From Eledone cirrhosa (taxonomy: Eukaryota), in the NCBI GenBank assembly GCA_964016885.1, contig OZ024764.1, positions 10,664,001-10,728,000 on the forward strand: DNA of 64,000 nucleotides, in the 5' to 3' direction. Below are positions 33,226-44,473 of the stretch, one piece after another; the stretch's first letter is position 1; the number at the start of each line of letters is the position of its first letter. The notes below the pieces were generated by a model. That model was not told where the DNA came from. It saw nothing but the letters and a program-made list of their open reading frames with translations, and ran no database searches. Position numbers and translations under genes: made by a program.

Positions 33226-33636
33226 ATGCCTATATTGAGTACCACTGAGTTCGATATCTTTGTCTTCTTCTTCTGCCTCTACCTCTTCTATCGATTATTC
33301 ATGGTGGATGCGGATGGTGCAGTGAATCTCATCAACCACGTCTATCCGATGGACGAATGCACCGAGGGTGTTTGTTGCAACAAGAAGAAGAAGATGGCGC
33401 CGAAAGAGAGCGCCGGCGTTGAAGACGCCGATAAAAATGGCGATGTCGGTCGTCGTAATAGTGGTGGGAGCGGCAGACGTAATGGGAATTCCCCCAACAA
33501 TGACTATACGAATAAGGAGCTTTACCTCATGATTAAGGAGCTCTTAAGGACACCAAATTTTGGTGAAATGTACCCAGAAGACCCGGAGATGGGAAAAACG
33601 CCCTCCCCCCCTCCCTCACCCTCAGTGTCCGGATAG
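33226..33636 (+). CDS. Hypothetical 136-aa protein with an N-terminal hydrophobic anchor ([25 protein letters not shown]...)
   Basis: Complex, GC-richer ATG-to-TAG ORF island between (TA)n tracts; N-terminus homologous to the ORF at 42608. Confidence 0.7.
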
Positions 33637-35684
33637 ATAGATAAATATATATATAAATATATATATATGTGTATAAATATATATATAAATATATATATAT
33701 ATGTGTATAAATATATATATAAATATATATATGTATAAATATATATATATATAAATATATATATAAATATATATATATAAATATATATATAAATGTATAT
33801 AAATATATATATATATAAATGTATAAATATATATATATAAATATATATATATATAAATGTATAAATATATATATATATAAATATATATATAAATATATAT
33901 AATATAAATATATATATAAATGTATATAAATATATATATATATAAACGTATAAATATATATATATAAATATATATAATTATATATATAAATATATATATA
34001 TATATATATGTATATATAAAAATATATATATATATATAAATATATACAAAAATATATATATATACATATATATATATAAATATATATTAATGATATATCC
34101 TTTTTGCTTATAAATATATATATATATATATATCAATATATATCAATATATAAAGATATATAAATATATATATATACATAAATATATATATATATATAAA
34201 TAGATATAAATACATATATAAATATATATATATATATATATACACATATATATTATATACTCATATATATATATATATATATATGAGTTCCGGGTTCAAT
34301 CGGGGTTAAGCACAATAAGTAAGGTACTCAATACATTAGTTGAGTGTAAACAATAAATTTAATTAAGAAATGGCTTCTGCAGAACTAGAACTGATTTATA
34401 CAAAGGTTTTCCTGGTAATTTCTTTCGAATGAAACAGTTCTACTCCTGTAGAAGAAATTTCTATATCAAATTTGGTATATATATTCATACATACATACAT
34501 ATATATACATATACATTTATACACACACATATACATACACACACATATATATACATATATATATACGTATATATATACGTATATATATACGTACATATAT
34601 ACATACACACACATATATATATATATATATATATATATATATATATATATATATATATATATATATATATATATATATATATATACATACATATATACAT
34701 ACATATGTATATACATATACATATATATATACATATACATACATATATACATATATACATACATATACACATATATACATATTCATATATATACATATAT
34801 ACATACATATACATATATATACATATTCATATATATACATATATACATACATATTCATATATATACATATATACATACATATACATATATATATATATAC
34901 ATATATACATACATATACATATATATATATATATACATATATACATACATATACATATATATATATATATACATACATATATATATATACATATATACAT
35001 ACATATATATATATATACATACATATATATATATACATATATATATATATACATACATATATATATATACATACATACATACATATATATATACATACAT
35101 ATATATATACATACATATATATATATACATACATATATATATATACATACATATATATATACATATATATATACATACATATATATATATACATATATAT
35201 ATACATATATATATATATACATATATATATATATATACATATATATATATATATATATATATATATACATATATATATATATATACATATATATATATAT
35301 ATACATACCTATATATATATATATATATATATATATATATATATATATATATATATACATATATATATATATATATATACATACCTATACATATATATAT
35401 ATATATATATATATATATATATATATATATAGAGAGAGAGAGAGAGAGAGAGAGAAAACTCCTTTTAGTAGTACCCTTACCAACGGTAGTAAAACAGCGT
35501 AAAAAAGACCCACGTGATTAATACCACTCCCTGTCTCCACCCCCATACTCATCTGTGTACCCCTGCCCCGCCCTACGTCCTGAGCAGTTTCTATCATGGA
35601 TGATATCGATTCCCCTCACTTGATTTTGGACCTGACATATTTTCGTTTGAACACTTACATCTGAATTTACATCTGGACAGACAT

Positions 35685-42535: not shown

Positions 42536-42607
42536 GTCGGAATTGTGAGGTGAGGTGAGGTCGGTGTTGTGTGGTGAGGTCGCTATTGTGATGTGAGGCC
42601 CGGTGTC

Positions 42608-44473
42608 ATGACTATACTAACTTCCCCAGGAGTAGATCTCCTAGCTTTTTGTATGAGCGTCTATCTGTTTTACCGTTTCTTTCTGAAGATATACTTGGAT
42701 CTACAGGGCAACGGAGAGGCCCCTAACAAACCCGACGACAAGAAAAACAAGCAAGACTGTTATTGCTTTACAAACCAACCACGGCCTCACTATCAGCTCC
42801 ACCACAACCTCTATCACAGCGACCACAGAAAAAACCGCCAACAGGACCTGGATGGATGTCTCTACGTAACTCACAAGCAGGGCAAAGGTCAGGAGAAGCG
42901 ACGGGGCCACGGTGATAGAGCCCCGCTGATGGGAACGGGGCGAAGGGTGGAGGAGGAGGAAGAGAGGAGAAGAAGGAGAAGAAGAAGAAAGAAGAGAAGA
43001 AGAGAAGGTGGATGGTGGAGAGGAGACGACGGCGGTAACAGCCGCAGCAGCACCACCAGCAGTAACAACAGTTTCAGTTACACAACGTACTGTGACAGCC
43101 ACAGCACCATCAGCAAGAAGACAGGTGGTGGTAGTAGCTCCAGCGACCAGCAGGTGTACGTAAAGACGAAGAAGAAGAAGAAGAAGGATGATGACTATGA
43201 TGATGAGGAAGCGGAGGAGTTGGTGTATCACTATGAGGAGAAAGTGGAAAGCGAGGAAGACGAAGAAGATAATGAGGGGAAGGTGGAGGAGGAATATAGT
43301 GAGAGGGAAGAGGAGAGAGTAGAGGCGAAGAAGAGGAAGAGGAAGAAGAAGAAAGAAAGGCGTGCTGGAACGATATCGGTGGTTTCAATTTTAGAAAGAG
43401 GAGCGCCGACCGGGACGGCCGGCGGCGCTGTTGCGACGACGAGGAGGCGCCGTGAGAGGTGCAGTTCGTTGTTGGACATACGGCTGCCGACACCGGCCAT
43501 GCCTCACTACAGGCAGGAGCGCGTTCCGAAGACGCAGCAACTTGAGAACGCCGCATCCATGGCCGGCGCCGCCGCCATGGCCGACGCCGCCGCCATGGCC
43601 AACGCCGCAGCAGCCGCCGCAGCAGCCGCCGCCGCCGCCGCCGCCAAGTACGAAGCGTCCGTCGACGGCGGACGCAAGGTCGACGGACGCTTGGAAGATC
43701 GCCTGGAAGACGCTATGCAGCGCGTGGCGTTGCTGAAACGTCAAGGAAGCAACTCCAGTGTAAAGCTGAAGGCAAACCCGGACTGGGCCCCGGACTCAAA
43801 ACCGGATCATCTCGACGCTAACTACCAACACAGCCATTACTACGACGGCGTCGGTGACGGTGGTGGTTCCAAACGGCAGCAGCGTTGTCTACGACGTTGC
43901 TTTTCCGCGGAAAACAACGTCACAATAACGCCGACGGAATGGACAAAGGTGAATGTCCGCACTCGCCCTAATTGGAAGCGGAAGACGGAAGCGGAAATGG
44001 ACCCGGACCCGGACCCGGACCCGGAAATGCTTGCGAAAGCGGGCTATGTAACCGGAACTGGGTTCGGTGGAGCAAGTTTTTGCCATCCCATCATCAGCTA
44101 CGACAACAACAAAAAGAGGACCTTCACCACCAGAACTGCCCGCCCCACCACCGCTTCAACCTCCGGGGTGGCCGCCAACAGATTCGGCTCCGCCACCTCC
44201 CTCAGGGCGGCGGCCAACAGACTCAGGTCAGCCAGCACCACCGCTACCACCACCACCACCGCTACCACCACCGGGTCCACCAACAGCGCGAGGAGGACGT
44301 CCAGAAGCCTCAGCTCCCACAGCTCCCTCAGCTCAACGACCGACTGCGACACCGCCGCCGCCGCCGCCACAAAGAACCCGGTGGCGATGTACGGCCGCCA
44401 CGTGAAAAGGATGGAAATAAAACTAGACGACAGAGTTGTCCTCACCTTGATACCCCACCGAAAAAACGAATGA
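42608..44473 (+). CDS. Hypothetical 621-aa single-exon protein: N-terminal hydrophobic anchor, then R/K-rich, acidic, poly-Ala and Thr/Ser-rich low-complexity segments
   Basis: 1.87-kb uninterrupted GC-rich ORF in an AT-rich background. First ATG is at 42608 (the track starts at an upstream GTG). N-terminus MTILTSPGVDLLAFCMSVYLFYRFF is homologous to the ORF at 33226. Confidence 0.82.
   Translation: MTILTSPGVDLLAFCMSVYLFYRFFLKIYLDLQGNGEAPNKPDDKKNKQDCYCFTNQPRPHYQLHHNLYHSDHRKNRQQDLDGCLYVTHKQGKGQEKRRGHGDRAPLMGTGRRVEEEEERRRRRRRRKKRRREGGWWRGDDGGNSRSSTTSSNNSFSYTTYCDSHSTISKKTGGGSSSSDQQVYVKTKKKKKKDDDYDDEEAEELVYHYEEKVESEEDEEDNEGKVEEEYSEREEERVEAKKRKRKKKKERRAGTISVVSILERGAPTGTAGGAVATTRRRRERCSSLLDIRLPTPAMPHYRQERVPKTQQLENAASMAGAAAMADAAAMANAAAAAAAAAAAAAAKYEASVDGGRKVDGRLEDRLEDAMQRVALLKRQGSNSSVKLKANPDWAPDSKPDHLDANYQHSHYYDGVGDGGGSKRQQRCLRRCFSAENNVTITPTEWTKVNVRTRPNWKRKTEAEMDPDPDPDPEMLAKAGYVTGTGFGGASFCHPIISYDNNKKRTFTTRTARPTTASTSGVAANRFGSATSLRAAANRLRSASTTATTTTTATTTGSTNSARRTSRSLSSHSSLSSTTDCDTAAAAATKNPVAMYGRHVKRMEIKLDDRVVLTLIPHRKNE

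Follow-up and report, generated by a model that had tools for sequence, protein, structure and literature searches.

A candidate pair of old paralogues in Eledone cirrhosa with a common N-terminal segment and divergent, predicted disordered tails

Two neighbouring reading frames with a common N-terminus

A stretch of 64,000 nucleotides (nt) of Eledone cirrhosa (GenBank assembly GCA_964016885.1, contig OZ024764.1, positions 10,664,001 to 10,728,000, forward strand; hereafter the window) contains two open reading frames (ORFs), ORF1 and ORF2, which lie on the same strand approximately 9 kilobases (kb) apart and begin alike. This raises the question of whether they are related genes, and of what kind of protein they would encode. 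A preliminary description had proposed an undescribed pair of membrane-anchored paralogues, and the coordinates, strand, lengths and N-termini given there for the two ORFs were found to be exact. With moderate confidence, they are read here as old paralogues in tandem, which would encode proteins with an N-terminal signal anchor and with disordered tails that would face the cytosol and act as membrane-tethered scaffolds. The features concerned are as follows (positions are those of the window).

33226-33636, plus strand: ORF1 (P0001), 136 amino acids, predicted N-terminal hydrophobic helix and disordered tail
33226-33303, plus strand: ORF1 shared N-terminal segment, codons 1-26, with D10, hydrophobic core at residues 11-22 and YLFYR at 33280-33294
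33373-33378, plus strand: ORF1 Cys50-Cys51 ahead of a Lys run, candidate palmitoylation site suggested by the sequence
42608-44473, plus strand: ORF2 (P0002), 621 amino acids, predicted N-terminal helix and largely disordered tail
42608-42685, plus strand: ORF2 shared N-terminal segment, codons 1-26, with D10, core at residues 11-22, YLFYR at 42662-42676 and K27 next
42758-42766, plus strand: ORF2 Cys51-x-Cys53 past a Lys-rich stretch, likewise a candidate palmitoylation site

The first 25 residues of ORF1 and ORF2 align without gaps at 11/25 identities, and BLASTP of the pair gave 11/26 identities with an expectation value (E) of 6e-5 for this single comparison. The ungapped score was reached in none of 200,000 shuffles (p 7e-5 for the identity count), and p was 1.1e-4 when the polar and hydrophobic blocks were shuffled separately. 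The two N-termini are reciprocal best non-self matches among the 51,497 stop-free 27-mers of the window (score 57; next 41 and 33). They also rank third (score 54; next 22) among the 2211 pairs formed by 67 ATG-initiated ORFs, the two higher-ranked pairs being copies of DNA repeats. The identity claimed previously was thus confirmed above both shuffle and window-wide nulls. The match is in register, with offset 0 alone scoring (43, compared with 9 for the best other offset), which fits the suggestion that the N-termini are paralogous. When YLFYR was removed, p was 0.0018 with one residue pool and 0.028 with two, and codons 1-10 are alike with a p of 0.025. A conserved helix face for the identical residues was considered and rejected, with 14,800 of 24,310 placements clustering equally well.

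At the DNA level, the 26 shared codons match at 15/26, 22/26 and 10/26 sites for codon positions 1, 2 and 3, respectively. Over codons 2-26 the proportion of synonymous differences (pS) is 0.87 vs 0.28 for non-synonymous differences (pN), and synonymous sites are saturated. This pattern would fit selection on the protein after an old duplication, but is no independent proof of such a duplication, because the pair was picked for its protein likeness. No DNA-level homology between ORF1 and ORF2 was found by self-BLAST or shuffles.

Predicted helix, tails and cysteine pairs

Structure models were those of AlphaFold2 in single-sequence mode. A helix was predicted at residues 6-39 of ORF1, with a predicted local distance difference test score (pLDDT) of 89 at residues 11-20, and at residues 7-34 of ORF2, with a pLDDT of approximately 90 at residues 11-30; elsewhere both models are of low confidence, and 451 of the 621 residues of ORF2 fall below a pLDDT of 50. 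Kyte-Doolittle maxima over 19 residues are 1.98 (ORF1) and 1.62 (ORF2), and the n-regions are acidic (net -2 and -1). A transmembrane (TM) anchor within residues 11-26 is likely on these predictions, but not secure, because the core is only 12 residues long and that of ORF2 only moderately hydrophobic.

The shared anchor had been described by its YLFYR motif. An unrelated mucin-5AC-like protein of Octopus vulgaris also has YLFYR at the end of its TM segment, as seen in the peptide quoted in PMC10142993, and because of this sharing the motif is no family signature. It was further found in a lobster insulin-like peptide in the full-text literature and is present in a closed frame at 49294. Its interpretation as a generic helix-exit motif is supported by the mucin-like peptide. 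Of the YLFYR anchor, the predicted N-terminal helix was retained, with a motif that is generic and a core of just 12 residues.

Beyond the shared segment the two proteins diverge. In local alignments of the tails, the observed score was reached by 278, 873, 352 and 168 of 1500 shuffles under four schemes, and at the DNA level by 20 of 300. The shuffles thus agree with the previous account of divergent tails, and their mostly disordered state is supported as a prediction. A second common motif spotted by eye, RT-PN..EM-P..DPEM, was discarded as not significant (185/1500 shuffles). About half of the ORF2 tail is of low complexity, with runs of Lys/Arg, Glu, Ala and Ser/Thr; it carries 13 RxxS/T motifs and 20 tyrosines, and three tyrosines of ORF2 stand in an acidic context. 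Cysteines occur at positions 17, 45, 50 and 51 of ORF1 and at 15, 51 and 53 of ORF2. A Cys pair near a Lys run, as noted before, is present in both proteins, but the order of Cys and Lys is opposite in VCCNKKKK (ORF1; C50, C51) and KKNKQDCYC (ORF2; C51, C53), and BLASTP gave no convincing alignment of these stretches.

Gene status of ORF2

The 621 codons of ORF2 were reached in 0 of 1000 dinucleotide shuffles (maximum 385), and shuffling in tiles of 31, 61 and 100 nt gave maxima of 441, 531 and 620, respectively, the medians being 195-265. Each of the other five frames of the region holds 11-24 stops. In both ORFs the ATG is preceded by G at -3 and by C at -1; both are also rich in G+C at third codon positions (GC3) and are not depleted in CpG, with observed/expected ratios of 0.97 and 1.0 vs 0.57 for the window.

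In short-read runs X1 and X3, which represent one sample and possibly the source of the assembly, ORF2 (leaving aside approximately 44231-44274) is mostly covered by one contig of flat depth 4-6, in which the frame is open. Given this single flat-depth contig, no close second copy of ORF2 is apparent. Compared with the window, the main contigs show insertions (3, 6 and 6 nt) within ORF2 and a single synonymous difference; their support for the frame is only modest, because indels in triplet and hexamer repeats preserve it anyway. Judged from these results, ORF2 is very likely a real, single-copy gene. In run X4, labelled with another organism, a 151-nt piece (42646-42796, ORF2 codons 13-63) is identical to the window; being AGCT-bounded and identical, it carries no divergence information. 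Restriction site-associated DNA run X5 is confined to the upstream repeat.

Upstream of ORF2, CACGTG and TGACGTCA motifs occur at 40904-40941 and 41612 (plus strand), and beyond them come a GA-rich tract and a donor-like GTAAGT. This region is a possible candidate for the promoter and a 5' untranslated exon of ORF2; further copies of TGACGTCA lie at 29835 and 53518. The end of a very high-copy repeat (42492-42535; summed contig depth of approximately 700,000), which belongs to a 116-nt tandem array, is situated 70 nt upstream of ORF2.

Searches for relatives

Relatives of the pair were sought in several libraries, with no positive control that octopod proteins are contained in them and with word-based searches that are weak for low-complexity queries. 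Among 8000 candidates scored for P0002 none had E<=0.001, and the 17 candidates for P0001 included no homologue. The N-terminal alignment compared with longer proteins gave 25 candidates, none at E<=10, and an exact sequence look-up gave no match. A phmmer search with P0002 only against 1.84 billion representatives returned 0 matches at E<=0.001, and there was no match in ESM Atlas or PDB sequences. No Pfam family passed, the only one listed being Nop14 at E 0.23, and PHROGs gave a single match (E 0.046) on poly-Ala. No relative was found in viral or metagenome contigs, and in Foldseek the ORF1 model gave 0/80 matches to viral folds at E<=0.001. Reflectin, suckerin and beak protein identities were excluded by Pfam or sequence search.

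These results bear out the previous statement that no family is recognised, Pfam and homology searches having given no confident match. A lineage-specific family, as had been proposed, would fit the blank searches; it would have two members, and the searches are those without a positive control. No description of the pair was found in the open-access literature (a search to which the squid-array Supplementary Table 4 of PMC9068888 was external), nor was relevant open-access literature found for six other motifs or for octopus lineage-specific disordered orphans. The sequences appear undescribed, yet orphan single-anchor disordered proteins are a familiar and common kind, and this is a modest orphan-gene finding.

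Proposed mechanism and its weaknesses

Under the favoured reading, a lineage-specific gene would have been duplicated in tandem long ago to give ORF1 and ORF2. Residues 11-26 would insert as an uncleaved signal anchor, leaving the short acidic N-terminus outside the cell or luminal, with the Tyr/Phe-Arg end of YLFYR at the cytosolic interface setting the orientation. Palmitoylation may occur at the Cys pair nearby, and the charged blocks of the tail, together with its Ser/Thr/Tyr motifs, would recruit partners under the control of phosphorylation, much as in vertebrate transmembrane adaptors, and after duplication selection would have been retained on the targeting segment only. The endoplasmic reticulum or plasma membrane would be the first choice of location, and the mitochondrial outer membrane the second.

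Several results weigh against this reading. No homologue or orthologue of either ORF was found in the protein, structure, viral and metagenome searches. Half of the non-Met N-terminal identities fall in the generic YLFYR motif. The uncharged core between D10 and R23 has 12 residues (11-22), with three or four more hydrophobic ones after it. The ORF2 hydropathy maximum of 1.62 is barely above that of its own poly-Ala run (1.53), and the net charge past the helix (residues 23-37) is -1 and 0, which is not clearly positive. The tails are unlike in global alignment as well, shuffles equalling or exceeding the observed score in 122, 527, 185 and 19 of 1500 cases under four schemes (p 0.08-0.35 in three), and each protein has one YxN motif, which is approximately the chance level. 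A frame as long as ORF1 arose in 13 of 1000 dinucleotide shuffles and is only marginally non-random. Finally, one-base deletions were seen in a Glu-rich stretch of ORF2 at 43270 (X1) and 43275 (X3), each in a second contig; these are probably due to cross-mapping.

Alternative explanations

The alternative that survives best, although it is considered unlikely, retains the paralogy and holds that only ORF2 is alive, ORF1 being a truncated or decaying remnant that lost its 3' part through microsatellite expansion or repeat insertion. A GATA/TA microsatellite array of 1.8 kb (33633-35431) supplies the ORF1 stop with its first TAG, and because of this position ORF1 is possibly truncated. Its ATG adjoins repeat fragments and (TA)n, its frame length has a p of only ~0.013, and it is a weaker gene candidate than ORF2 and possibly a truncated or dead one. 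However, its 136 codons are still open, its GC3 at fourfold sites is 0.60 vs 35-45% G+C in the flanks, and its anchor was kept at the protein level despite synonymous saturation, which would need long selection on both copies.

More doubtful is the view that the two are unrelated genes whose N-terminal helices converged on an aromatic-plus-Arg exit motif, each possibly arising from T-rich DNA. TM-first birth of genes de novo is known in yeast (as described in the portion of PMC7005711 on this subject), YLFYR also terminates the octopus mucin-like TM segment, which is unrelated, and recurs in the closed frame at 49294, residues 11-18 alone are unlike (p 0.23), and homology is lacking in both DNA and tails. 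Convergence does not, however, readily account for a likeness that persists when YLFYR is left out (p 0.0018-0.028) and that is in exact register from Met1. Duplication is also the simpler explanation for two such orphans placed 9 kb apart on one strand.

It is improbable, though slightly less so than what follows, that the shared segment is cleaved off as a signal peptide and that the proteins are exported and processed at basic sites in the manner of peptide precursors. A hydrophobic core of 12 residues is compatible with the h-region of a signal peptide, and V27-D28-A29 of ORF1 offers a possible -3/-1 site by eye, along with two GRR motifs. Against secretion stand the acidic N-regions (-2 and -1) and the conserved Tyr-rich motif, of a kind rarely conserved in signal peptides. 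Moreover, ORF2 lacks a suitable cleavage site close to the core, and there are no repeated peptides.

The pair had also been described as single-exon, and both frames are indeed uninterrupted in the genome. For ORF2 this is qualified by a donor-like site with a score of 4.8 and by a short intron that may span the ATG. It is very improbable, however, that the two frames form part of larger spliced genes as exons; in one such case the ORF2 ATG would lie inside an intron of 75-80 nt and an anchorless form would start from Met16. The candidate intron has a donor at 42550 or 42555, TACTAAC at 42615 and an acceptor-like AG at 42629. With a donor-site matrix, the donor-like sites at 42550/42555 scored 5.7 and that at 43949 scored 4.8, vs 2.9-5.8 for the donors of the neighbouring SLC13 gene, whereas ORF1 donors all scored <=0.84 with the same matrix. 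The branch point, however, lies just 9 nt from the AG, the sites at 42550/42555 are units of a GTGAG repeat, and codons 1-10, which splicing would remove, match those of ORF1 (p 0.025).

Hardly credible is an origin of the ORFs as virus or mobile-element cargo inserted in microsatellite-rich DNA: their frames are uninterrupted, richer in GC than the window and, unlike it, not depleted in CpG, and ORF1 is flanked by (TA)n, the preferred target of Naiad Penelope-like elements, which are known in Octopus (according to the part of PMC8557442 dealing with them), but no relatives were found in viral contigs or PHROGs or, at E<=0.001, among viral folds, ORF2 is single-copy in short reads, and Pfam gave no transposase, reverse transcriptase, GIY-YIG or other nuclease domain.

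Genomic setting

The pair is surrounded by further features, of which the following were located.

1921-28849 (approximate), plus strand: multi-exon, spliced SLC13 (sodium:sulfate/carboxylate symporter) gene, Pfam PF00939 at E 2e-6 for one exon
32845-33220, strand not assigned: dispersed-repeat fragment of approximately 145 nt in about 2.6 tandem copies, each with terminal (TA)n, found by self-BLAST, copies 92% alike
44915-44920, plus strand: AATAAA, candidate polyadenylation signal by consensus match only, approximately 440 nt past the ORF2 stop

The SLC13 gene lies upstream of both ORFs on the same strand, and the ORF1 start is 4,377 nt past its stop. It is CpG-depleted across much of its length, in contrast to ORF1 and ORF2. 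The ORF1 stop and the ORF2 start are separated by 8,972 nt, mostly tandem repeat, and TA, GA and CA microsatellites as well as tandem arrays are abundant throughout this 64-kb eukaryotic window. Just beyond ORF2, a strong donor-like site at 44891 (minus strand) stands next to CACGTG, and an opposite-strand gene is possible there.

Self-BLAST located relatives of the ~145-nt repeat fragment preceding ORF1 at 18417-18477, 53879-53945 and 54770-54885. The dispersed repeats of the window presumably resemble octopod short interspersed elements (SINEs). An Rfam scan gave a single SINE-like tRNA match, at 19231, and none near ORF1 or ORF2. A loose core pattern of the hammerhead ribozyme matches 17 sites on both strands between 429 and 60733, which belong to four or more repeat families. 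Several form inverted pairs, e.g., 56150/56155, as Penelope-like elements would show, and the 17 sites were not reported by the Rfam search at gathering threshold. A 581-codon ORF at 62002-63747 (plus strand) consists almost entirely of 75-nt tandem repeats encoding a basic 25-residue unit. Its Pfam matches are repeat-summing artefacts, and it could be an in-frame satellite or belong as an exon to a repeat-protein gene.

Comparison with known systems

In the peptide quoted for the O. vulgaris mucin-5AC-like protein (PMC10142993), the TM segment ends in YLFYR as it does here, but it is a Gly/Ala/Ile-rich stretch of approximately 20 residues preceded by further sequence, and the quoted peptide otherwise does not match the pair. 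The yeast TM-first de novo genes, as presented in the relevant section of PMC7005711, are likewise orphan ORFs whose sole recognisable feature is a hydrophobic helix encoded by T-rich DNA; ORF2 differs from them in being long, and the pair in being apparently old. With the clade-specific tandem arrays of coleoids (PMC9068888, in the passages describing them), the pair shares adjacent same-strand genes without known relatives. Unlike those arrays, it has only two members, saturated synonymous sites and 26 shared residues.

The Tom20-type anchor of the mitochondrial outer membrane, as characterised in an excerpt of PMC2192658, is an N-terminal TM segment of moderate hydrophobicity, as here (1.98 and 1.62), and, if the helix ends at residue 22, the five residues past Tyr22 carry a comparable net charge of +1 (ORF1) and +2 (ORF2). 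If the helix runs to residue 26, however, the next five residues carry -2 and 0, unlike Tom20, and the pair has no Tom20 or other Pfam domain.

The transmembrane adaptors LAT, NTAL, LAX and PAG, in the account given by the pertinent text of PMC3342071, resemble the pair in having a very short N-terminal segment (10 residues here), one helix next to it, which in the pair is a candidate TM helix with 12 uncharged core residues, and a long non-enzymatic tail with tyrosines and membrane-proximal Cys. The tails of the pair are without enzymatic Pfam domains, as adaptors require, although their cytosolic side is conjectural. The same text describes several SH2-binding Tyr motifs (YxN), phosphorylation by Src/Syk and recruitment of effectors; the pair differs from this YxN cluster in its single YxN per protein. 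It also lacks the juxtamembrane CxxC of LAT, NTAL and PAG, its CC and CxC lying approximately 25 residues past the helix, and this palmitoylation motif is absent in LAX too, according to that text. Protein and Pfam searches gave no sequence homology to LAT, NTAL, LAX or PAG, and the likeness is one of analogy, not membership. It is therefore only a speculative suggestion, and an improbable one, that the pair represents an independently evolved, octopod-specific transmembrane adaptor family analogous to LAT/PAG, in which the anchor was kept and the whole signalling tail replaced.

If expressed, the pair would join the undescribed clade-specific genes of cephalopods as a duplication of which only a 26-residue targeting segment survived, and would offer a clean test case for anchors outlasting tails in orphan genes. 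At best, it would be an invertebrate counterpart of the transmembrane adaptors.

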